Source of the DNA: an uncultured bacterium
GTDB taxonomy: Bacteria > Patescibacteriota > Patescibacteriia > UBA1558 > GWA2-36-10
NCBI GenBank assembly: GCA_937870675.1
Contig: CALMZN010000018.1
Location: 1-43,869, forward strand
Length of the DNA: 43,869 nt
Reading direction: 5' to 3'
In this document: positions 13,735 to 23,958 of the stretch, piece by piece
Numbering within the stretch: the stretch's first letter is position 1
How the letters are laid out: each line of letters opens with the position of its first letter
Translations under genes and position numbers: made by a program
The notes under the pieces: model-generated
Told to the model about the DNA's origin: nothing
What the model saw: the letters and a program-made list of their open reading frames with translations, nothing else
Database searches by the model: none

Positions 13735-15336
13735 ATGACAGCTGACGAGAAATGGCGAAAATTTAAAAAAACCTTTTTTCAGTTCAAACTAGACTATTGG
13801 CTGATTTTTCTGGTTTTAGCTTTTTATTATGCTTGCCTACAGTGGAATGGCTATATAGGCGACCCTGACGGCTTTTATCACGCCAAGATAGCTGATTTCC
13901 TAAGACAGGGTATATTACTCAAAGAACTGCCTTGGATGCAATACAGCTCAATTACTGAGCATTTTACTGATCACCACCTGCTTTACCATCTATTATTAGT
14001 GCCTTTTACTTACATTCAATCACCCCTGATCGGGGTCAAGGTGGCCACGGTATTTTTCGCCACTTTAATGGGGTTAACTTTCTACTGGTTATTTAAAAAA
14101 CTAAACATTGTCTGGCCGTGGCTGTGGACTTTTTTACTAATTAGCTTGCCAGATCTTACTTTTCGCCTAACTCTAATCAAAGTAAACAGTTTATCTTTAA
14201 TATTTATTTGCTTTTTTATTTACGGCTTGTATTACAAAAAACGCTGGCTGATTTTTACTTTGGGATTTCTTTTTGTGTGGCTCTATGGTGGCTGGCCGAT
14301 TGCCTTTTTGCTGGGACTTATTTTTTTGCTAGCTACAGCTATTTATGATTTTATACACCACAAAAAAATCAAGCTCTTTCACCAGCGCTTGCTCATATCT
14401 TGGGATGATAAAAATAAATTCATTGCTGATAAAAAAACCTTACTATTCTTGATGAGCGGTTTGTTGGCTGGCGTAATAATCAACCCCTACTTTCCTCATA
14501 ATCTAAAATTTTACTATGAACAATTTTTTCTAATCGGCGTCATCAACTATGGCTATCTTTTTTCTGTTGGCGGTGAGTGGTATGGTCGCTCAATCCCGCA
14601 GGTAATATATTCGGGCGATTATTTTTTTATTTTGGGAATCATAGCTATAATAATTTTGTTTTTCAATTACAAAAAAATTAGCCACTTAAGCTGGTTTAGC
14701 TTTTTGCTAAGCTTTTTATTTTTGTTATTGACCCTAAAATCATACCGTTTTATTGAATATTATCTTCCTTTTTTATTAATTTTTACAGCCAGCGCTTGGA
14801 CTGATATTGTTAAAAAAATTGGCTTCAAAACAATTACCAAAAACATCAAATCTCTGCTTGAGTGGCAAAAAATATTTTTGCTAATTTATTTAGCTATTTT
14901 TTGTATTATTGCCCAACCAAATATTTACAAAAAAATATTGGATACCAAAACACCCAAAGACCTCCCAATTGATCGTTATCAGTCAAGCGCCAATTGGCTA
15001 AAAAACAACACTCCAAAAAATAGCGTGGTCTTCCACGAGGATTGGGATGAATGGCCAATGCTTTTTTATTATAACGACCACAATTACTATATTGTCGGCT
15101 TAGATTTTTCTTTTATGTATTTTTCGCATCCGGCTTTACAAAAAAAATACATTGCTATCACCAAGGGCGATCTAAAAGACAACTTGGCTTGGGAAATAAA
15201 AAATGGTTTCAATGCTAGCTATATTTTTGTGGAAAAAACTCGGCACGAAAATCTGATCGCCAATATAAAAAAAGACCGGAATATTTCCTTGTCCTATGAA
15301 GATAAATATTTTCTAATTTACAAAATAGCTTACTAA
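13735..15336 (+). CDS. Polytopic GT-C-fold membrane glycosyltransferase-like protein (PMT_2/ArnT/STT3-like)
   Basis: 533 aa with at least 10 hydrophobic helices. An early-loop D-x-D motif (GDPDGFYH) is present, and the C-terminal soluble part contains HEDWDEWP. Confidence 0.6.
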   Translation: MTADEKWRKFKKTFFQFKLDYWLIFLVLAFYYACLQWNGYIGDPDGFYHAKIADFLRQGILLKELPWMQYSSITEHFTDHHLLYHLLLVPFTYIQSPLIGVKVATVFFATLMGLTFYWLFKKLNIVWPWLWTFLLISLPDLTFRLTLIKVNSLSLIFICFFIYGLYYKKRWLIFTLGFLFVWLYGGWPIAFLLGLIFLLATAIYDFIHHKKIKLFHQRLLISWDDKNKFIADKKTLLFLMSGLLAGVIINPYFPHNLKFYYEQFFLIGVINYGYLFSVGGEWYGRSIPQVIYSGDYFFILGIIAIIILFFNYKKISHLSWFSFLLSFLFLLLTLKSYRFIEYYLPFLLIFTASAWTDIVKKIGFKTITKNIKSLLEWQKIFLLIYLAIFCIIAQPNIYKKILDTKTPKDLPIDRYQSSANWLKNNTPKNSVVFHEDWDEWPMLFYYNDHNYYIVGLDFSFMYFSHPALQKKYIAITKGDLKDNLAWEIKNGFNASYIFVEKTRHENLIANIKKDRNISLSYEDKYFLIYKIAY

Positions 15337-15344
15337 CTTATTTA

Positions 15345-17234
15345 TTATTGGCTAAAATAAGTTCTATCAAACACTTTTTCTCTTTTGATAAGCAGACCCA
15401 AGTTGCTCCTGTCGCCCAAGACATTGCGACTCTCATAGCGATAAATTTCAAAAGAGTCAACCTGATTATTCAAATAATAATAAACTGTTGCTGTTTGCCC
15501 AGCTTTGTTTTGGGCCAAGGAATAAAGCCCATAATCAAAAAGTACTTCCCAATATTGGTCATTCTGATAAAATCTGACCAGATAATAATTGCTTACTAAA
15601 TTATTATAATTTATTTTTAAGGTCTGTGCCTCAGCCGACTGTGTCAATGACCATGCTTTGAGTAGACCATCTTCTCCGCTCGTCACTGACTCAAGCTCAA
15701 AATAAGGCATACTCTTTTCACCAGAAGTGTCTTTGCTCTGCCACAAAAAAATATTGTCCTTGGCATAAGTCAAGTTGTAATCCGCCAAAACAGCCCCCCA
15801 GCGATCCGGCATAGTCAGTGGATCGCCGTGCTTCCAATATAGCGGACTATTGCTGTCATTTTTGGTGGAAATAAATTGGCTCATATCCATCAAGATATAA
15901 TCTACTTTTGGCAAGCTAAAATCTCTTTCCGCAAATATTGTCTTGCCGTAATAAGCATAGTCAATATTGTAGATCTCTCTGCGTGTGCTCAAGGCCGGCA
16001 AAAATGACGAATCCGCGCATACTGTTGCTTGGGGTGGAATCAAGTCAATTATTTTTTGCCTATCTTGATGGTAATTTGGCAAAAATTTCTTGCCAAGTAC
16101 TGAAAAAACGGGTGTGTCAAATATCACAAAAAATAAAATAGAAAAAATAAATAGGACAACAAAAAATGGCTGGTGTTTATAAATCAACCCTAATTTTTGA
16201 GTATTTTTTTTGCTAAATATGGTCCAAAGCCCAAAAATATAAGCCAAGAAAATTCCGGGCATCAAAAACATCACATAGTGGGTCTGTAGCTGGACGCCAT
16301 TGATGCCACCGTTCTTCATCAGATATAGTGAAAACGGAAATAGCGACAAAAGTAAATATTTTTTGGCTAAAAAAGGAACAAAAAGAAATGGCAAAAAATA
16401 ATAAAAAATAAGAATAACATTATTTATAGTAAAAATGTGAGTAAGCACAGCTAGGGGATGCTTCAGCCAGTTAAAAATAACGCCCAACAAACTATCGCCA
16501 CCCAGCCAATTGTAATATACCAAAAATTTGAAACTATTGGCTGGCGAAACCAAGCTAATAATATAAATGGCCGCAAAAAAATATATTAAAGAACTAATAA
16601 AAATATTTATACTGAACTTTAGCGATCTTTTTTCTAATACGCTAAACAAGGCCAAACCCAAAAATAAAAAAGCAGCATCTTCGCGAGTAAGCAAGGTGAG
16701 GACAAAAAATAACACAAACCACTTGAGCTTTTTTTGTTGGTAAAAATAAAAAGCCCAAAAAAACAAAAAAACCATCAGGTGCAACATGTGAAACTCAAAT
16801 AACACTTGACGATGCACAAAGGGATTGGTCAGCCACAAAAAAGCAGTAGTATAAGCGAAAATGACATTGCTGGAATATTTTTTGGCAATAAGGTAAATTG
16901 GCCAAGCTGCTAGAGCGGTGATTATCACTTGAATAATTAAGAGAGTGATGGCTGATGGCTTGATAGCATAAAACGGCAACAACAAAAGCAGGGCTGGTGA
17001 AAAATGATCAGCCAGATAATTGTTCAAAGTAATGGTTTCAGCAAACCAGCGACCATGCCAAGTATTAAAAAAAGTTTGGTTAAAAATCCCCAAGTCAGAG
17101 ATGTTGTAGCCAAAATAATAATATTTTTTGAGAACCAAAAAAATAAAGAACAAAATAAAGACCAGAATACTGACCCAAAGATATCTTTGGCTATGTTTGG
17201 CTAGGTCGGATTTTATTCTACTAACAAAATTCAT
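15345..17234 (-). CDS. DUF2079-family polytopic membrane protein
   Basis: 629 aa. The N-terminal GYNISDLGIFNQTFFNTWHGRWF resembles the DUF2079 signature as I remember it. It has many TM helices and a ~200-aa C-terminal extracytoplasmic domain. Confidence 0.65.
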   Translation of the reverse strand: MNFVSRIKSDLAKHSQRYLWVSILVFILFFIFLVLKKYYYFGYNISDLGIFNQTFFNTWHGRWFAETITLNNYLADHFSPALLLLLPFYAIKPSAITLLIIQVIITALAAWPIYLIAKKYSSNVIFAYTTAFLWLTNPFVHRQVLFEFHMLHLMVFLFFWAFYFYQQKKLKWFVLFFVLTLLTREDAAFLFLGLALFSVLEKRSLKFSINIFISSLIYFFAAIYIISLVSPANSFKFLVYYNWLGGDSLLGVIFNWLKHPLAVLTHIFTINNVILIFYYFLPFLFVPFLAKKYLLLSLFPFSLYLMKNGGINGVQLQTHYVMFLMPGIFLAYIFGLWTIFSKKNTQKLGLIYKHQPFFVVLFIFSILFFVIFDTPVFSVLGKKFLPNYHQDRQKIIDLIPPQATVCADSSFLPALSTRREIYNIDYAYYGKTIFAERDFSLPKVDYILMDMSQFISTKNDSNSPLYWKHGDPLTMPDRWGAVLADYNLTYAKDNIFLWQSKDTSGEKSMPYFELESVTSGEDGLLKAWSLTQSAEAQTLKINYNNLVSNYYLVRFYQNDQYWEVLFDYGLYSLAQNKAGQTATVYYYLNNQVDSFEIYRYESRNVLGDRSNLGLLIKREKVFDRTYFSQ

Positions 17235-17334: not shown

Positions 17335-18150
17335 CCCTATTTTGGGCACAAATCCGAACCTTGAAAGTGAGGTGCTATATGCGTCGCTATGTGCTTATCT
17401 CCTGTCTGCTGATGGCCCTACTGCCACTCTGTGGCTGTGCTGGCCACCGCCTTCCCTTTGGTCTGGGTGTCGATTACCGGGACTCTGAAGGTCGCGCTCT
17501 GGACTGGCCCCGCGGTGACAATCCGGTCACCGTGGAGATGTTCTTTATCCTGAACTACAATGAGCCGGTGTATATCTCTGTCAACGGCGGGCCCCGAAAC
17601 GAGCTAAGGCCGGGAAGAAACAGCGTCGTCACCCTGACTTCGAAGAAGTCCATACCTTTCGAGGTCTGGTGGGGCAAACGTGTCGGTTACGACACTTTCC
17701 TTGAAGGTGATCCTCACTATGTGGTTGGTCTGTACACTGGCCAGCCAATCATCATTGATGAGTTGTTCCTCCGAAATCTGGTGCGTCTCGAGTTCGTGGT
17801 GGCCAACATTTCTGGTGAAAGCATTGACTTTGTTGACGGTCACGGAAATGTCTTCACTCTCAAGCCGGGAGAAGACAGGGTCTTGAATATCCTTGCCGGG
17901 GACTACATCTTGACCTGGCGACCTTCGGACAAAAGTTATGCTGGTTCCAGTATGAGGGGTCGCCGAATGGTCCGACCTGGACAACCGATTTTCTGGAAGG
18001 AAGTGCTTTACGACGCCGGAACACTGATCGACCGTAGTAGGCCAACTTGGGCTGAAGACATCCTGTTCCGCAATGGTGGATACATCCCCATATAACCTGC
18101 ACCGCACCAAAAACAAGCGGCTCCAACCACCGTGGTTGGAGCCGCTATTA
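17335..18150. other. Compositional island (about 55 % G+C in hand-counted samples, against about 30-38 % in the flanks)
   Basis: I hand-counted 60-nt lines. Inside the island: 17401-17460 is 38/60 G+C, 17701-17760 is 28/60 and 17941-18000 is 34/60. In the flanks: 17221-17280 is 18/60 and 18301-18360 is 23/60. Confidence 0.85.
17379..18095 (+). CDS. Orphan secreted lipoprotein (no family recognised)
   Basis: The ORF-track frame 17322..18095 is trimmed here to ATG 17379, which has the SD GTGAGGTG 5 nt upstream. The N-terminus MRRYVLISCLLMALLPLCGC is a signal peptide with a lipobox-like L-C-G-C. The ORF fills the GC-rich island exactly. There is an internal duplication of a ~48-aa module. Confidence 0.7.
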   Translation: MRRYVLISCLLMALLPLCGCAGHRLPFGLGVDYRDSEGRALDWPRGDNPVTVEMFFILNYNEPVYISVNGGPRNELRPGRNSVVTLTSKKSIPFEVWWGKRVGYDTFLEGDPHYVVGLYTGQPIIIDELFLRNLVRLEFVVANISGESIDFVDGHGNVFTLKPGEDRVLNILAGDYILTWRPSDKSYAGSSMRGRRMVRPGQPIFWKEVLYDAGTLIDRSRPTWAEDILFRNGGYIPI

Positions 18151-18192: not shown

Positions 18193-18591
18193 TTAGCCAG
18201 CTGGCGGTATTGGCACTGCGGCTGGAGTAGTTCCTCCCCCAACACCAATACCTTCAATCAATCTTAACATCACAAAATTGACTATCACATAAGACGCAAA
18301 AATAATAGCCAAGCCAATCGTAGCATTGATAATGGTCTCTCGTGATTTTTTGATGGCTTCGGTGTTGCCAGCTGAAGTCATCCACTTGAAACCCGCCCAA
18401 AGCATCAGAACAATGACTATGGCCCCCACAAAATAAAGGATGGTGTTGATAATGGAAGTAATAATTTGAATCGGAGTTTTATTGCTCACTAAACCAGTGC
18501 CTCCAGCCGCTTCGTTCAAGGAGTCCAAAGGATTCACTGCTAGAGCAGTAAAAGGCAACAATAGAAATAAGGAAATAATATATTTATACAT
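18193..18591 (-). CDS. TrbC/VirB2-like (type IV secretion pilin-like) small membrane protein, paralog 1
   Basis: I prefer the start at ATG 18591 (MYKYIISLFLLLPFTALA signal peptide, SD AAGGTG 6 nt upstream) over the track's GTG at 18600. It has two TM helices flanking WAGFKWMTSAGNTEAIKKSRET, and a Gly/Pro-rich tail. Confidence 0.7.
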   Translation of the reverse strand: MYKYIISLFLLLPFTALAVNPLDSLNEAAGGTGLVSNKTPIQIITSIINTILYFVGAIVIVLMLWAGFKWMTSAGNTEAIKKSRETIINATIGLAIIFASYVIVNFVMLRLIEGIGVGGGTTPAAVPIPPAG

Positions 18592-18604
18592 ATAATTCAC
18601 ACCT

Positions 18605-18643
18605 TAGTAGGCAAAAAGCTTGCCTACTATAGTCTAGACTATA
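18605..18643. repeat. Two adjacent perfect palindromes in the pilin-2/pilin-1 spacer
   Basis: The first is TAGTAGGCAA-AAAGC-TTGCCTACTA (18605-18629). The second is TATAGTCTAGACTATA (18628-18643). Confidence 0.9.
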
Positions 18644-18661
18644 TGTCTTAGTTCAAATACA

Positions 18662-19018
18662 CTACGTTAAAAGTTGGTTTGACAATTGGTCAAAGATGTA
18701 TTGAGCGGCGGCGTATGAAGCGAAAATAATGGCCAAGCCAACAACAGCGGCGCCCATGATTTTCTTGGCGGCCTCAATCTGCTCACTATTACCCTGAGAA
18801 GTGAACCATTTGAATCCACCATAAAGGAATAACAAGACGGCAATCGCGCCTAAGAAGGTCAAAATAATGTTCGTAATATTTGCAACAACCTCGAATATAT
18901 CTTTACTGGTTTCTGGAGCTGTGGATAGATTCTGTAAACTATTTCGGCCAAATGGATCATCTTGAGCCATAGCCATACCTGGCGCTAAAAGCATTAGGGA
19001 AACTAATAATTTTTTCAT
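18662..19018 (-). CDS. TrbC/VirB2-like small membrane protein, paralog 2
   Basis: The track ORF 18662..19111 is trimmed here to ATG 19018 (MKKLLVSLMLLAPGMAMA signal peptide), which has the SD AAAGGGGGTGA upstream. The removed extension overlaps a good promoter. The core motif is YGGFKWFTSQGNSEQIEAAKK. Confidence 0.72.
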   Translation of the reverse strand: MKKLLVSLMLLAPGMAMAQDDPFGRNSLQNLSTAPETSKDIFEVVANITNIILTFLGAIAVLLFLYGGFKWFTSQGNSEQIEAAKKIMGAAVVGLAIIFASYAAAQYIFDQLSNQLLT

Positions 19019-19082
19019 TTCTTCACCCCCTTTCAATTTTAAGATTTTAATAATTAATAACAAGGTACTTTTTACTAATAAT

Positions 19083-19111
19083 ATTATAGTCCAAAAACCA
19101 CAAAACATCAA
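19083..19111 (-). promoter_or_regulatory. Candidate promoter of pilin-like paralog 2, TTGATG-17 nt-TATAAT
   Basis: The minus strand reads TTGATGttttgtggtttttggacTATAAT, about 65 nt upstream of ATG 19018. Confidence 0.6.
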
Positions 19112-19128
19112 GAACCGAGAAATTATGT

Positions 19129-19518
19129 TTATTTTAAAAATTCGGTAAAAACATAATTCAATATTACATAGCTAAAGAAAATCATAGCTAGGCCAAATAT
19201 CGCCCAGACCAATGTCTCTCTGCCTTTCTTTACTTTTTCGGGATTGCCTTGGGAAGTGAGCCAGGTAAAACCACCCAAAACCAGATACAATAAAGCCACA
19301 GCCCCAACTATGCCTAAGATGGCTTTGATGACATTGTTGATAAGTAAGGGGACGGTATCAACTGATAGGGGGTTGTCTAGGGAAATTCTATCATCTGTTG
19401 CTGCCCAAGCCGACAAGGGAAGCGTGGCTAGCCAAAATAAATTTATTATTTTTTTTACCCCGTTAAATAAATTTTTTCGGGGCTTACCAACATTATTCAT
19501 ATTTTTTATATTTTTCAT
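19129..19518 (-). CDS. TrbC/VirB2-like small membrane protein, paralog 3
   Basis: 129 aa. The core motif is LGGFTWLTSQGNPEKVKKGRET, between two TM helices. The signal-peptide-like KKIINLFWLATLPLSAWA is preceded by about 20 extra residues, so the true start is uncertain. Confidence 0.65.
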   Translation of the reverse strand: MKNIKNMNNVGKPRKNLFNGVKKIINLFWLATLPLSAWAATDDRISLDNPLSVDTVPLLINNVIKAILGIVGAVALLYLVLGGFTWLTSQGNPEKVKKGRETLVWAIFGLAMIFFSYVILNYVFTEFLK

Positions 19519-19589
19519 TGGTGTCTAATTTATATAGTCATGCAATAAATTTAAAATTTAAACTATGTTTAAATTTTATTTAACGGGGT
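19457..19589. repeat. 15-nt perfect inverted repeat enclosing the start codon of pilin-like paralog 3
   Basis: The plus strand has ACCCCGTTAAATAAA at 19457-19471 and TTTATTTAACGGGGT at 19575-19589. A third partner, CGGGGC, lies at 19478-19483. Confidence 0.9.
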
Positions 19590-19608
19590 GAATATATTTA
19601 TGATTGTC

Positions 19609-19649
19609 ATTGCGAGTTCCGTCGCGTCAGACGCGACGGAACTCGCAAT
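19609..19649. repeat. 18-bp-stem perfect palindromic hairpin; its 21-nt core recurs at 25419-25439
   Basis: The hairpin is ATTGCGAGTTCCGTCGCG-TCAGA-CGCGACGGAACTCGCAAT. The core CCGTCGCGTCAGACGCGACGG is identical, including loop orientation, to the recA terminator hairpin. Confidence 0.9.
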
Positions 19650-19663
19650 CACAGCTTTATTTT

Positions 19664-20341
19664 TTATATTCCTGGTATCACTGGTAAATCATCTAAGGGA
19701 TTCATCATGACACAAATATAGTGTTCATCGCCGGGGCACAAATTCTTCTCATAATATTCACTTATTGCTGGCAACAAAGACAGATCTAATACATTATAAC
19801 ACTTCCAGCTCTCAAAATTAGGTAACCCTTCTATGGGATTCATTTCCGCCTTGACCTCACACTTGGTGACACACTCCTCGTGCCAACAAACATAGGGATT
19901 GATGGCCGTACTACCCGCAATCACGTTGCAAGGTGTTTCATCTGACTTGCCATCGCATTGGTCCGCCACAGCGCCAATCTGATAGTCACTCTTTACATCT
20001 AAAATATCATTCACGAAAAAATTTAATAACAAATAACTAGTAAAAGCAATGAACAGAGCAATGACTGTGTTGGTCATGGTCTGTTGGCCTTTGCGCACTT
20101 TTTCTTGGTTACCTTGTGATGTCATCCACTGGAAACCGCCAATTACAAAGTACAACAAGGCCACCGCCCCCATAGCGCCGAGCAATAACTTGGTTAATAA
20201 AATAAAACCAGTGGCCACGTCAACTAATTGACAATCTCCATCAGTAATACAATTCAAAGAATCCAAAAATCCTGACTCAGCCGCAAAAGCTACTAGTGGC
20301 AAAGCAAAAATTGTTAAAATTATTATTTTAAAATATTTCAT
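19664..20341 (-). CDS. TrbC/VirB2-like small membrane protein, paralog 4, fused to a Cys-rich C-terminal domain
   Basis: 225 aa. It has a signal peptide (MKYFKIIILTIFALPLVAFA) and the core IGGFQWMTSQGNQEKVRKGQQT. A ~110-aa tail follows with 8 Cys (10 Cys in total). Its ATG overlaps the stop of the upstream binding-protein gene (ATGA). Confidence 0.7.
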   Translation of the reverse strand: MKYFKIIILTIFALPLVAFAAESGFLDSLNCITDGDCQLVDVATGFILLTKLLLGAMGAVALLYFVIGGFQWMTSQGNQEKVRKGQQTMTNTVIALFIAFTSYLLLNFFVNDILDVKSDYQIGAVADQCDGKSDETPCNVIAGSTAINPYVCWHEECVTKCEVKAEMNPIEGLPNFESWKCYNVLDLSLLPAISEYYEKNLCPGDEHYICVMMNPLDDLPVIPGI

Positions 20342-21702
20342 TGGCTGGGCTGATAAGTTTGATTTATTCTATCAATAAATAATTTCAAATCTGACTGGTT
20401 GTTGATGTCAATTTTGTTGTCAGCCAAACCATTGATAAAATCGGCCATATAGCTTTCGGCTTTGGGGTAATCATAACCAGTGTACCAGTTGTCGGCGGTC
20501 AAAACCTGATTGGCAAAAGGAGCAATGTCGGGATTATTCTTTTGCTCAATGATCAATGAACGCAAAGCAGTTGGTTTTTTGTTTTGATCCAAATATTTTT
20601 TGACATTTTGGGCGCTGGCTGTGTTTTGGATAAAGTTCCAAGCTACGCCTTGATTCTTGGATTTTTTGGCGACCACATTGACCCAGTAGTCGGCATAATA
20701 CTTTGTGCCTTGTGATCCTTCGGTTTGTGGAAAATTGGTAATGCCCCATTCAAATGGCACTCCGGCTTTACGCAAAGCGTCGGCGTGATAGCTATAACCA
20801 AAGAAATAGGCCAGTTTGCCAGAGCTAAACATATCAAAAGCATTGGGCAAACTCTTGCTCCAAGAATATGAAGCCAAGCCCGGTCGAGCAAAGCTAATAT
20901 AAAAATTTATAGCTTCTTGAAATCTAGCGGCTGATTGCTCTTCACCAACTGGATTAAACTTTGTGCCTTTTAGATTAACTTGGGTTTGGAGCATCAAGCT
21001 AGAAACTATATCAAAAAATCTTGGTATGTTGTCGGCCGTGCCCAAGGCCACACCTGATTGAACTATTTTATTGTCAGTGGTCACTTTGGTCAGCTGACTG
21101 GTCTGATCCACCAGATCATTGAAGGTAATGATTTTTTCGGGCAAGCTAGCTTGGTCAAGTAAGTCCTCGTTATAAAAAGTGACTAGCGTGTCTAGCGAAT
21201 AAGGCAAAGCATATATTTGATTGTTTTTGACCACATTGTTGTACACCACATCAACATACTGGTTCTTAACTTCGTTGGCGCTAAGCCCTTTTACTGTCTG
21301 CAAAGTGACGACTGTTTCTTTTTTTATGGTGCCTTTTATTTCCTGCACTGGAATTTGGACTGTGCTGGGCATGGGCACAATGCGATTTTGGTATTTATTG
21401 AGCCAGCTGGCTGGAATAGCAAAAACATCCGGCCCCCGATCATCAGCCCAGGCCTCTAATAATTTTCTTTCATATTCTTCATAACGAAGCTGTTTGTAGG
21501 TGACTTTCACGGTAGGGTGGCTAGCTTGGTAGTCCTGTATCAAGCTAGCTACTTGTGTGGGGCTATCCCACACTCCCCAGTAGGTCAAAGCCACGGGTTG
21601 ACTGGCACTATCTGTGGAGCAACCCAAGCCCTTACAACCAAAACCAGAGGTGATGACAAACACTCCGATCAATAATAATGTAATTATTTTGTAGCCACGC
21701 AT
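20338..21702 (-). CDS. Extracellular solute-binding lipoprotein (ABC family-1, sugar-type) without cognate permease or ATPase nearby
   Basis: 454 aa. It has a signal peptide plus lipobox (LLLIGVFVITSGFGC). The size and sequence character fit sugar-binding proteins. Confidence 0.7.
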   Translation of the reverse strand: MRGYKIITLLLIGVFVITSGFGCKGLGCSTDSASQPVALTYWGVWDSPTQVASLIQDYQASHPTVKVTYKQLRYEEYERKLLEAWADDRGPDVFAIPASWLNKYQNRIVPMPSTVQIPVQEIKGTIKKETVVTLQTVKGLSANEVKNQYVDVVYNNVVKNNQIYALPYSLDTLVTFYNEDLLDQASLPEKIITFNDLVDQTSQLTKVTTDNKIVQSGVALGTADNIPRFFDIVSSLMLQTQVNLKGTKFNPVGEEQSAARFQEAINFYISFARPGLASYSWSKSLPNAFDMFSSGKLAYFFGYSYHADALRKAGVPFEWGITNFPQTEGSQGTKYYADYWVNVVAKKSKNQGVAWNFIQNTASAQNVKKYLDQNKKPTALRSLIIEQKNNPDIAPFANQVLTADNWYTGYDYPKAESYMADFINGLADNKIDINNQSDLKLFIDRINQTYQPSQ

Positions 21703-21703
21703 A

Positions 21704-22606
21704 TTAATTTACTATTTGACGTAAATATTTTTTTAATTCTTTCTTAAAGGCCGATCTTTTTAGGCCAAAATTTATAATGGCCTTCATAAATTCCAGCTTG
21801 TTGCCACAGTCATAATAATCTCCCTCATAAAGACAAGCATAGCCAACTCGCTCTTTGATGTAACGAGCAATAGCATCGGTCAGCTGGATCTCGCCACCAG
21901 CGCCGGGTTTTTGCTTGGCCAAAAAGTCAAATATCTCTGGGGTCAATATATAGCGACCAGTGACAGCCAAATTGGAAGGCGCTTTGCTGGGAGTGGGTTT
22001 TTCAATCAACTTTTTTATTTCAGCTGTGCGCTCGTCAATTTTTAGAGAGTCAATAATGCCGTATTTGTAAGTTTCTTTTTTGTTGACTTTGGTGACACCC
22101 AAAACTATGTCTTCATATTTTTCATAAACCCGCATTAGTTGTTTTATGGCTGGCACCCTGGAATCAATAATGTCATCGCCAGCAATTACCACAAATGGCT
22201 CATCACCGATCAGCTCTCGAGCAGTCAGTACAGCATGTCCCAAACCCTTTGGTGTTTTTTGTCGAACATAAATGAATTTAGCCATGTCCGAAATTTTTAG
22301 CATCTCAGCCAGCTCGGTCTTTTTTCCTTTCTGACGAAGTCGGTACTCTAGCTCAAAATTGCGGTCAAAATGATCTTCAATGGCGCGCTTATTGGCTGAA
22401 GTGACAAAAATTATTTCTTCAATACCGGATTGCACGGCCTCCTCCACGATATATTGGATAATCGGCTTGTCAACCACAGTCAGCATTTCCTTGGGTTGGA
22501 CTTTGGTGGCTGGCAAAAACCTAGTGCCAAGCCCCGCCACCGGAATTACTGCCTTCCTAATCTTTTTCACCCCGTTAGAAATTATCATTATTATAAACCA
22601 ACACAA
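21704..22606 (-). CDS. galU: UTP--glucose-1-phosphate uridylyltransferase
   Basis: KAVIPVAGLGTRFLPATKVQPKEMLTVVDKP matches the GalU/GtaB N-terminus. By analogy with the family N-terminus (as I recall it from B. subtilis GtaB, beginning roughly MKK.RKA.IP), the true start is probably internal: GTG at 22570 or ATG at 22588. Confidence 0.88.
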   Translation of the reverse strand: MCWFIIMIISNGVKKIRKAVIPVAGLGTRFLPATKVQPKEMLTVVDKPIIQYIVEEAVQSGIEEIIFVTSANKRAIEDHFDRNFELEYRLRQKGKKTELAEMLKISDMAKFIYVRQKTPKGLGHAVLTARELIGDEPFVVIAGDDIIDSRVPAIKQLMRVYEKYEDIVLGVTKVNKKETYKYGIIDSLKIDERTAEIKKLIEKPTPSKAPSNLAVTGRYILTPEIFDFLAKQKPGAGGEIQLTDAIARYIKERVGYACLYEGDYYDCGNKLEFMKAIINFGLKRSAFKKELKKYLRQIVN

Positions 22607-22652: not shown

Positions 22653-22668
22653 ACATGTCTATATTATA

Positions 22669-23958
22669 CTAAAATTCCACCTCCTTGTAAATTGTTTTTA
22701 TATTTCTAGCTCGCGCGGTCAGAGCCAAGAATATAAAAAATAATAAACTCAAGTCATTTTTAAAATAAGGCACATCGGCCAAGCCATGAATCAGCCAAAT
22801 AAGCCAGAAAATTAACAAGGGCCAGGATAAATTATTTTTTTCAAAAAATAATTTTTTTATTTCCTGACCAATAAAATACAAAATAAGCAAAAAAGCCAAT
22901 AAGCCAAGGAGCCCCAGCTCCACCCAAAAATTTAAAAATATATTGTGTGGATACAAAAATATTTCTAACCAAGCTGTTTTGTGATACGGGACCAGCTTAA
23001 TTTGATAAGCATTGAACCCTGCGCCCCTAAACCAGTTGTCTTTGAGCAGGGTGTAAGTTTCTTGCCACTGGCTACTGCGTATCTCCAGTGAAGTGGCCCG
23101 CAAATCAAGAACTGGATGGAAAAGTTGTTGGCTAAGGTCAGACCTTAAGCGACTATTGAAAAATACTAATAACAAAGAAATGGTTATTAAAAAAAATAAA
23201 TATTTTTGTTTTCTAATCTTTAATTTTTTATATAATTTTACTGCGCCAAAAAAAATAAGAGCAAACAAAATGGCCAGTAAGGCCCCTTGACTGACTGCCC
23301 ACCAAGATAAAAAAATTCCCAAGATCCCGATGGCCAAATATTCCCATTTCCGCTGGCTACAAATATAATAAACCACCAAAAATCCACTGACGCCGGCCGT
23401 CAGCAAGCTCAAGGCATTGGGATAAGAAAAAATTGAAGTTAATCTTTTTACATTAGGATAATAATAGGCCGCTGGTAAATTGACGCCGGTAAAATTTTGA
23501 ATAATAGCAAAAATAGCCAGCCAGAAAATTAAAATAGCTGTTGATTTTATTATCATCTGATAATCTTTTTCGTTTTTCAAGCTAGTGACAAGCACCACAA
23601 AAAATAACAGCGGTTCCAAAAAATAAGCGCGCCAAAGACCCAAAGATTTCAGAGTTGGGTTATACAGCCAAGCTACCAAGCTAACTACTAGCCAAAGTAT
23701 TGATAAATAAAACCATTTTTTTTCTATTGTCTGCGCCAACCAAAATTCTTTTTTATACGGCTTGGCATAAATTACCCAAATAAAAAATAATATTAAAATC
23801 ATCAGCTCCAAAAATGTCGAGGGTAGAGCCAATATTTTGAAGCGCCAGAGATAACTTGGCAAAAAAATAATAATTAGTGACAGGCCCCACAAAATATTTT
23901 TTTTAGCAACATAAGCAAAAATAAACCCCGCGATTAAAATAAAAAATAAATTCAACAT
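22669..23958 (-). CDS. O-antigen-ligase/Wzy-like polytopic membrane protein
   Basis: 429 aa with about 11-12 TM helices and a larger loop late in the protein. The call rests on overall architecture and on context next to a flippase. Confidence 0.6.
   Translation of the reverse strand: MLNLFFILIAGFIFAYVAKKNILWGLSLIIIFLPSYLWRFKILALPSTFLELMILILFFIWVIYAKPYKKEFWLAQTIEKKWFYLSILWLVVSLVAWLYNPTLKSLGLWRAYFLEPLLFFVVLVTSLKNEKDYQMIIKSTAILIFWLAIFAIIQNFTGVNLPAAYYYPNVKRLTSIFSYPNALSLLTAGVSGFLVVYYICSQRKWEYLAIGILGIFLSWWAVSQGALLAILFALIFFGAVKLYKKLKIRKQKYLFFLITISLLLVFFNSRLRSDLSQQLFHPVLDLRATSLEIRSSQWQETYTLLKDNWFRGAGFNAYQIKLVPYHKTAWLEIFLYPHNIFLNFWVELGLLGLLAFLLILYFIGQEIKKLFFEKNNLSWPLLIFWLIWLIHGLADVPYFKNDLSLLFFIFLALTARARNIKTIYKEVEF

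Follow-up and report, generated by a model that had tools for sequence, protein, structure and literature searches.

An ordered array of four predicted type IV secretion system pilins and its conserved genomic neighbourhood

Tandem arrays of VirB2-like pilin genes have been described in the Patescibacteria, a group that accounts for a large part of uncultured bacterial life and whose members attach to other microbes. In a survey of 3,035 genomes of this group with the Pfam models PF04956 (TrbC/VirB2) and PF18895 (T4SS_pilin) (Quinonero-Coronel et al. 2025, PMC12102498; what is drawn here from this and the other cited papers on Patescibacteria refers to the portions of those texts available to us), VirB4 was scored in 2,417 of the 3,035 assemblies (80%). 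VirB4 and VirB2-like pilins occurred together in 1,948 assemblies, with the pilins near virB4 in 1,135 of these and away from it in ~40%, and 441 arrays of 2-11 VirB2-like genes were recorded in 383 assemblies, with a mean identity of 25%. Components of the Patescibacterial type IV secretion system (T4SS) are often located near dnaA (PMC12102498). In Southlakia epibionticum, a T4SS cluster that includes a predicted series of pilins, and that has no recognisable coupling protein or relaxase, is essential for epibiotic growth as judged by transposon sequencing (Tn-seq) (Wang et al. 2023, PMC10633639). Here we describe four consecutive minus-strand genes, P4, P3, P2 and P1, in a contig of 43,869 bp, analysed whole and called the window, from the chromosomal, origin-near region adjoining dnaA. 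We read them, with a probability of roughly 0.6, as differentiated VirB2-like pilins of the chromosomal, non-conjugative T4SS found in most Patescibacteria, that is, as an orphan array near the origin whose VirB4 machinery is encoded elsewhere.

Four pilin-family genes of distinct types

All four predicted proteins exceed the gathering score of PF18895 (26.6 bits, for a model of 71 positions), covering 89-99% of the model at E values of 1e-7 to 1e-15 (individual scores in Table 1). Against PF04956, which has a gathering score of 27.9 bits, P3 also passes, P1 scores 23.2 bits, and P2 and P4 give no match at E <=1. These profile searches bear out an earlier, preliminary description of this DNA, which had assigned the proteins to a TrbC/VirB2-like pilin family. 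The best NCBIfam model for all four is NF045849, but their scores of 34.5, 22.3, 32.4 and 15.2 bits lie below its cut-off of 40, so they are not members of that family. NCBI already names the orthologs 'pilin'. When a profile built from 21 array members was compared with the sequences of the PDB, only two matched at E <=10, both of them A. tumefaciens VirB2, at the non-significant values of E = 1 and 4.9. A tblastn search with the P3 core against 72,556 plasmids gave no match.

The short and mostly hydrophobic PF18895 model, which P1, P2 and P4 exceed by only 6-9 bits, would be in keeping with a spurious result, in which unrelated small hydrophobic proteins are matched through their transmembrane composition. 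This explanation is exceedingly improbable, given that four of four proteins match the same family over nearly the whole model, that they have in common a polar loop motif, TSxGNxE, that a second and independent pilin model, NF045849, matches them below threshold, and that VirB2 proteins are the only PDB matches and 'pilin' the name given to the orthologs. Membership of P1-P4 in the T4SS pilin family is almost certain.

The four proteins are 36-41% identical to one another over their full length, and their alignment reveals the common motif [G/A]GFxW[MLF]TSxGNxE, followed by L..F.SY. Each carries a signal-peptidase site of the AxA type (ALA, AMA, AWA and AFA), and hydropathy and K/R counts give every one of them two hydrophobic helices with a K/R-rich connecting loop. 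The ORFs, AxA sites and helices therefore agree with the plan proposed in the preliminary description for these minus-strand genes (signal peptide, first transmembrane segment, loop, second transmembrane segment), whereas its loop motif, largely correct, was slightly over-stated, as P1 has A-G-F rather than G-G-F and P2 is without the K. Two of the listed open reading frames (ORFs) appear to be too long. To judge from the sequence, P2 likely starts at ATG 19018, which is preceded by a strong Shine-Dalgarno element, GGGGGTGA; its listed start, TTG 19111, falls in the -35 hexamer of a site resembling a promoter. Similarly, P1 likely starts at ATG 18591, preceded by AAGGTG. The exposed segments of P1 and P2 contain the sequons N-K-T and N-L-S, respectively; the idea that these serve N-glycosylation was dropped because the sites are not kept in orthologs.

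The DnaA protein of the window is 72-96% identical to those of metagenome-assembled genomes (MAGs) of Patescibacteria/Komeilibacteria, the nearest being MAGs of the Komeilibacteria type, and Komeilibacteria belong to class ABY1 in Table S1 of the survey (PMC12102498). Its DnaA relatives thus put the organism in the Patescibacteria, as had been suggested earlier, and more narrowly among Komeilibacteria-like members of class ABY1. The closest relative, L001, has a DnaA 96% identical to that of the window. The survey defined an array as 2-11 genes that match PF04956 or PF18895 with an i-Evalue <0.001 and a hidden Markov model (HMM) coverage >50%, and that stand in tandem or with one non-pilin gene between them (PMC12102498); here, four consecutive genes match with a coverage of at least 89% in a Patescibacterial genome, and the array falls within this definition.

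In five genomes, the array is composed of four ortholog types in the fixed order P4-P3-P2-P1. Identity of the core averages 58-60% within a type, versus 31-34% between types. The stability and order of these types fit a differentiated multi-subunit set better than a variation cassette of fast turnover. The rival reading is a cassette for host range or antigenic variation, in which any of the paralogs could serve as the major pilin, singly or in varying mixtures, so that the cell could adjust to different host strains or escape recognition. Such variation has been proposed for the virB2 paralogs of Bartonella and Anaplasma and suggested for Patescibacteria (PMC12102498). It is consistent with several features of the locus. 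Evolution is faster in the tail of P4 and in the exposed N- and C-terminal segments than in the core; differential expression could be achieved through an internal promoter and an RNA switch (described below); and in one genome, L003, the P2-type gene was duplicated recently (96% identity between the copies). However, a cassette would be expected to show gene conversion or flux in copy number, which is not the pattern of four old and stable orthologs in fixed order, and the presence of an extra domain on P4 only argues for a division of labour. We consider a variation cassette unlikely.

The distinct tails that had been noted for P1 and P4 were both found. The C-terminal tail of P1 is Gly/Pro-rich (more broadly, rich in Gly, Thr, Pro and Ala), ends in GIGVGGGTTPAAVPIPPAG and is unlike that of the L001 ortholog. 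The tail of P4 is 112 aa long and contains 8 Cys; two more, C31 and C37, form a C31-x5-C37 loop in the N-terminal exposed segment. Among full-length homologs of P4 (n=28), the ten Cys are kept in 21 of the 25 that were aligned, and all ten lie within segments predicted to be extracellular. In the F pilus both termini are on the outside and the inter-helix loop lines the lumen (PMC5018250). An AlphaFold2 model of P4, with a mean predicted local distance difference test score (pLDDT) of 76.8, consists of a leader helix, two long helices (39-74 and 79-113) and a beta-rich tail. This tail changes quickly: in close relatives the two-helix transmembrane core is 94-99% identical versus 43-69% for the tail, and in comparison with L001 the whole of P4 is 74% identical, with a non-synonymous divergence (dN) of 0.18, versus 87-98% and 0.01-0.07 for its neighbours. 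The rapid change of the tail and the raised dN speak for its exposure at the cell surface. The fast-evolving, disulfide-rich domain of P4 is a candidate determinant of host specificity.

Secretion machinery and a proposed role for the array

Together, these observations suggest the following scheme for the orphan array. Pilin precursors would be exported by Sec and cleaved after the AxA site, and the mature proteins would be kept in the membrane, their two ends outside the cell and their basic loop on the cytoplasmic side. A machine of the VirB4/VirB6 type, encoded elsewhere, would extract them and polymerise a filament for contact with the host bacterium. P2 and P1 would be the abundant structural subunits because they appear to have their own promoter, and P4 and P3 minor subunits because they would be expressed at a lower level, by read-through from the upstream galU and solute-binding protein genes. 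P4 would act as a host-specific adhesin, and a stem-loop in the pilin mRNA would set the output of P1 through occlusion of its ribosome-binding site or RNase III-type processing.

We searched for secretion genes at several scales. Pfam scans of ORFs >=100 aa found no VirB4, VirD4, VirB6, relaxase or pilus ATPase in the window, in line with the preliminary description; with respect to virB4, none was present within ~20 genes of the pilins, as judged from the 12 flanking genes of one side and the 18 of the other. Neither VirB4, VirB6 nor VirD4 was found in ~21 syntenic loci with flanks of up to 10 kb, and no VirB4 around nine pilin homologs. Within 10 kb beyond dnaA, the two closest relatives have no VirB4-sized ORF. 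Among ORFs >=500 aa of 80 dnaA-centred loci from relatives there was again no VirB4, but only PilB-type T2SSE ATPases, ComM and unrelated proteins.

The preliminary description had given weight to this missing machinery, but it says little, because the window is a single 43.9-kb contig and covers a few percent of a genome of ~1 Mb. A T4SS encoded elsewhere in the genome is probably the ordinary explanation for these pilins, given how widely the survey scores VirB4 (see above) and the entry VirB4 = Yes for each of the seven Komeilibacteria rows considered from its Table S1, which include the assemblies of L023 and L050 (PMC12102498).

Several points weigh against the reading of P1-P4 as subunits of such a T4SS. 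Dependence on a T4SS draws on literature statistics, and VirB4 and its partners are missing from the window, from the syntenic loci and from the regions beyond dnaA described above. The division into major and minor subunits and the adhesin role are deduced from gene order, promoters and evolutionary rates. The VirB2 matches in the PDB were non-significant, and a Foldseek comparison of the P4 model with the PDB returned nothing at E <=0.001 for either the helical core or the Cys-rich tail; the structure ranked second was an archaeal conjugation pilin, 8dfu (E = 1.7, non-significant, with a TM-score of 0.56 on the target). Finally, according to a 2025 review, which repeats the points made above on S. 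epibionticum, a pilus on Patescibacteria is yet to be shown.

Spacers and conserved neighbouring genes

In the mRNA between P2 and P1, we identified a conserved stem-loop (Table 1). It is composed of a perfect 16-nt palindrome, TATAGTCTAGACTATA (18628-18643), an apical GTAGG...CCTAC hairpin, and a 3' arm that contains the Shine-Dalgarno element and ATG of P1. The palindromes reported earlier for this spacer are thus present, as this element and its adjoining hairpin, and they are conserved. The minimum free energy of the fold is -28.6 kcal/mol (z = -5.3). Over 16 distinct sequences, from one of which the structure of 24 pairs was derived, 92.2% of cells are paired, versus 29-40% in slid controls, with compensatory changes at five of the pairs. 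At several stem positions, G-C alternates with G-U or U-A with U-G, which works only on the sense RNA, and the sense strand is more stable than the antisense strand in 13 of the 16 sequences.

The same spacer contains a 21-mer, TATAGTCTAGACTATAGTAGG, that is invariant across genomes whose pilins are only 40-60% identical and that pairs with sequence downstream of it to form the stem-loop. A search of Joint Genome Institute (JGI) metagenomes gave 15 exact matches, 15 of 15 between two pilin genes (arrays of 2-5 are visible); the 80 dnaA loci and the rest of the window have no copy. As a side observation, the stem-loop and 21-mer together, at 18588-18646 of the window and in L086-L100, occur only between pilin genes of such arrays. 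We also considered the 16-nt palindrome as the operator of a wider regulon; this was rejected, since there is no further copy in the window or the 80 dnaA loci.

The 5' arm of the stem-loop is invariant and the 3' arm variable, and an alternative small hairpin with the apical stem has a predicted energy of -13.2 kcal/mol. The unequal conservation of the arms indicates that the palindrome may bind a protein, or that it may form an alternative hairpin that frees the ribosome-binding site of P1. For the stem-loop as a whole we favour, by inference, a role in translational occlusion or in RNase III-type processing. The element is a candidate control point of the array, and with its 21-mer a possible tag for finding such arrays in metagenomes.

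Two promoter-like sites accompany the array (Table 1). The first, upstream of galU and recognised by consensus match only, in a scan that found 24 sites versus 13 expected in this AT-rich region, is a possible start for a galU-SBP-P4-P3 transcript (SBP, solute-binding protein). The second lies upstream of P2, where a TTGATG-17-TATAAT promoter had been claimed and is indeed present (19111-19083, read along the gene). In an alignment of P3-P2 spacers from five genomes, its -35 and -10 positions are kept, which is evidence in favour of a promoter within the array that serves P2 and P1. At the other end, a bidirectional intrinsic terminator finishes both the array and a convergent lipoprotein gene.

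In contrast, the large hairpin between P4 and P3 does not behave as a conserved regulator, and this candidate was rejected. Its GC-rich palindrome occurs once in the window; L001, with a P4-P3 spacer of 16 nt, is without it, and in L099 a different palindrome copy is located at a different position. The ~145-nt insertion that contains it shifted the start codon of P3 and so added an N-terminal extension of 20 aa, the L001 ortholog starting at MKKIINLFW. Of the features cited earlier for individual regulation of the genes, the P2 promoter-like site and the P2-P1 palindromes are conserved, whereas the P4-P3 hairpin is a lineage-specific insertion. Neither hairpin, P4-P3 or P2-P1, matched an Rfam family. 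We note that GC-rich palindromic units with the core GTCATTGCGAG...CTCGCAATGAC, set in AT-rich spacer, extend over 19453-19653 in the window and 1890-2057 in L099. Since some relatives whose DnaA proteins are 95-96% identical have such units, others lack them and others have them at a different position, the units resemble a miniature mobile palindromic element.

The neighbourhoods of pilin homologs and the 21-mer matches revealed the same array in ~20 other loci and a common module core across ~21. The core consists of galU, a binding lipoprotein, the long P4-type pilin, three or four short pilins, and the convergent lipoprotein. Assemblies that carry it include GCA_964540095.1, GCA_964992075.1 and the MAGs with contigs JBAYIQ010000004.1 and JBAZKN010000003.1. 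The first conserved gene is galU, which is syntenic in relatives. Next is the solute-binding lipoprotein, a member of the carbohydrate-binding type, whose orthologs (452-459 aa) match PF01547/PF13416. The ATG of P4 overlaps the stop codon of this gene as ATGA, and the junction is overlapping or abutting in every locus examined, with translational coupling between the lipoprotein and the first pilin. No ABC permease or ATPase gene for the binding lipoprotein is present in the 44-kb contig.

The convergent lipoprotein has positional orthologs of 160-260 aa in all loci. With the L001 ortholog it is 43% identical at the amino acid level, versus 87-98% for its neighbours. The gene has a GC content of 52.6% (59% at third codon positions), and the rest of the window 39.1%; its orthologs have 45-56% versus a background of 35-40%, and the anomaly fades in genomes of 23-26% GC. 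GC-biased conversion could account for this, as could repeated transfer or selection acting at the mRNA level. An exhaustive search of 1.84 billion representatives recovered 19 relatives of the protein, and a word-indexed search 4. It has no match in Pfam or NCBIfam, and its AlphaFold2 model (pLDDT 46.6) is too poor for a fold search.

Frequent but non-constant neighbours of the module are genes for Wzx, Wzy_C, DUF2079 and an STT3-like protein. Of the linkage to envelope-glycan genes that had been claimed, the part with galU and the binding protein is conserved, and that with Wzx and Wzy_C is not constant. Two of the genes beside the array, at 13735-15336 (+) and 15345-17234 (-), encode large, polytopic membrane proteins. 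One is the STT3-like protein, which has 533 aa and a sub-threshold match to TIGR04154 (E 1.4e-7), and some relatives (L085, L101) have two or three copies of it in tandem; the other is the DUF2079 protein. This suggests a function in protein or envelope glycosylation beside the pilins.

These neighbours raise the alternative of an envelope module that works independently of a T4SS, in which the two-helix proteins are anchors or stalks that operate with the binding protein, the convergent lipoprotein and the glycan genes as a device for glycan capture or surface display. The Wzy_C family includes the type IV pilin glycosylation enzymes PglL and PilO, and under this alternative the pilins could be O-glycosylated by a Wzy_C-family enzyme. 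The galU-SBP-pilins-lipoprotein core in ~21 loci with no secretion ATPase in view, the overlap of the SBP stop with the P4 start, the nearby Wzy_C, flippase, DUF2079 and STT3-like genes, and the Gly, Thr, Pro and Ala of the P1 tail all speak for it. Nevertheless, we find it distinctly unlikely: all members pass a T4SS pilin HMM, most Patescibacteria have VirB4 (PMC12102498), the Wzx, Wzy, DUF2079 and STT3-like genes are not constant neighbours, and the N-x-S/T sites of P1 and P2 are not conserved. Moreover, conserved gene order in a single family-level clade says little about function; rpoC, ftsK and recA are syntenic too.

A broader proposal is about as unlikely. It holds that galU, the binding protein, the adhesin-tailed pilin, three short pilins and the GC-rich lipoprotein form a self-contained locus for a host-contact organelle in one ABY1 clade. 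Its filament could be assembled without a linked T4SS, or any T4SS at all, the binding protein and lipoprotein would be components of the pilus that capture or recognise host glycans, and the subunit ratios would be set by the internal promoter and a hitherto undescribed RNA stem-loop switch.

The remaining gene order was established by Pfam scans of ORFs >=100 aa. It is that of a housekeeping region and runs dnaA, dnaN, ruvA, FemAB, a Mur ligase, rpoB, rpoC, ftsK and recA, then the Wzx flippase, Wzy_C, galU, the solute-binding lipoprotein, the pilins and the convergent lipoprotein, and finally DUF2079, the STT3-like membrane protein, yebC, ruvC, glycogen genes and PBP1. Many third-party annotation (TPA) MAGs titled 'uncultured Gammaproteobacteria bacterium' (L005, L006, L007, L012 and others) have DnaA proteins 52-96% identical to that of the window and share a synteny of the Patescibacteria type; their organism labels look wrong. 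Separately, a lone PF18895 pilin of 133 aa was found in L102 (2316-8226; GCA_054018555.1, JBPLYY010000050.1). It is followed on the same strand by six genes (273, 204, 458, 241, 275 and 162 aa) without a Pfam match, which may be an unrecognised accessory cluster for PF18895 pilins.

Table 1. Positions of the array genes, associated elements and conserved neighbours (strand '.', no single strand).
Feature	Sequence	Coordinates	Strand	Remarks
P4	window	19664-20341	-	225 aa; long pilin; PF18895 35.2 bits
P3	window	19129-19518	-	129 aa; short, most canonical pilin; PF18895 57.6 bits, PF04956 28.3
P2	window	18662-19018	-	118 aa; short pilin; listed ORF 18662-19111; PF18895 32.5 bits
P1	window	18193-18591	-	132 aa; short pilin, last gene of the array; listed ORF 18193-18600; PF18895 32.3 bits
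Pilin-mRNA stem-loop	window	18588-18646	-	~60 nt, ~24 bp, conserved
Internal sigma-70-like site TTGATG-17-TATAAT	window	19083-19111	-	10/12 consensus; upstream of P2
Promoter-like site TTTACA-17-TATAAT	window	22663-22691	-	11/12 consensus match; upstream of galU
Bidirectional intrinsic terminator	window	18116-18146	.	strong; 14-bp stem with 9 GC pairs and a T-run on either strand
GC-rich palindrome, 24-nt arms	window	19605-19653	.	96% complementary; within the P4-P3 insertion
galU (UTP-glucose-1-phosphate uridylyltransferase)	window	21704-22606	-	TIGR01099 375 bits, cut-off 326.8; Pfam NTP_transferase
Solute-binding lipoprotein (SBP_bac_1-like)	window	20338-21702	-	454 aa; sub-threshold GanS/MalE matches
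Convergent lipoprotein	window	17379-18095	+	~238 aa; LLPLCGC lipobox
Convergent lipoprotein ortholog	L001	12023-12703	-	
Convergent lipoprotein ortholog	L004	3040-3729	-	
Convergent lipoprotein ortholog	L085	11374-12075	-	
Convergent lipoprotein ortholog	L099	3454-4137	-	

Comparison with known systems

Arrays of this kind are already published (PMC12102498, PMC10633639), and NCBI's naming of the orthologs points the same way; the novelty implied by the preliminary description was over-stated, and this locus adds local details rather than a new system. In the one Patescibacterial species tested, the unusual T4SS, together with its series of pilins, is essential (PMC10633639), a picture that this locus does not change. 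The stable set of four subunits does, however, suggest a filament made of several different pilins. The details merit a short follow-up rather than a place among high-priority discoveries.

The closest relatives are the Patescibacterial VirB2 arrays themselves, which, like the array described here, match PF18895/PF04956, stand in tandem near dnaA on the chromosome, are without a relaxase and belong to monoderm hosts. Paralog identity is low in both, with a published mean of 25% versus 36-41% over full length here (PMC12102498). The window array belongs to class ABY1, where the arrays of the survey are less prominent (PMC12102498). Whereas the pilins of S. epibionticum ML1 lie inside the T4SS cluster SEML1_0006-0019 (PMC10633639), those of the window are at least 12-18 genes from any machinery. 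The 'Sec secreted array' of TM7x is also of this kind. What is new here is the stable set of four fixed ortholog types, the pilin with a Cys-scaffold tail, the coupling to a binding protein gene, the conserved stem-loop in the RNA and a partner lipoprotein that is hypervariable and rich in GC, none of which is mentioned for published arrays in the portions of those papers available to us.

The classical pilins VirB2 (A. tumefaciens T-pilus), TrbC (RP4) and TraA (F/pED208) resemble P1-P4 in their long leader, signal-peptidase site, small mature size, and two hydrophobic helices with a short basic loop, and P3 passes their Pfam model, PF04956. They differ in being diderm proteins encoded inside a T4SS operon, usually in single copy; VirB2 and TrbC are cyclised, and a C-terminal domain of 112 aa such as that of P4 is not theirs. 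The virB2 arrays of Bartonella and Anaplasma phagocytophilum are likewise tandem, divergent and host-associated, and serve a non-conjugative T4SS. However, they belong to diderm pathogens of eukaryotes and their paralogs are thought to be antigenically variable, whereas the types in the window are stable and have distinct architectures.

Proteins of the Mbov_0395 family (NF045849), from integrative and conjugative elements (ICEs) of Mycoplasma, are also small, two-helix and pilin-like, and belong to a monoderm transfer system related to MPF-FATA, but they are ICE-borne and linked to conjugation, and the window proteins score 15-34.5 bits, below the cut-off of 40. The Ced/Ted pili (Aeropyrum pernix CedA1, 8dfu) are made of helical-hairpin pilins with a VirB2-like fold, in an organism that has no outer membrane. 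Ced differs in being a system for archaeal DNA import; no sequence relationship to it was detected, and the Foldseek match was, as given above, non-significant.

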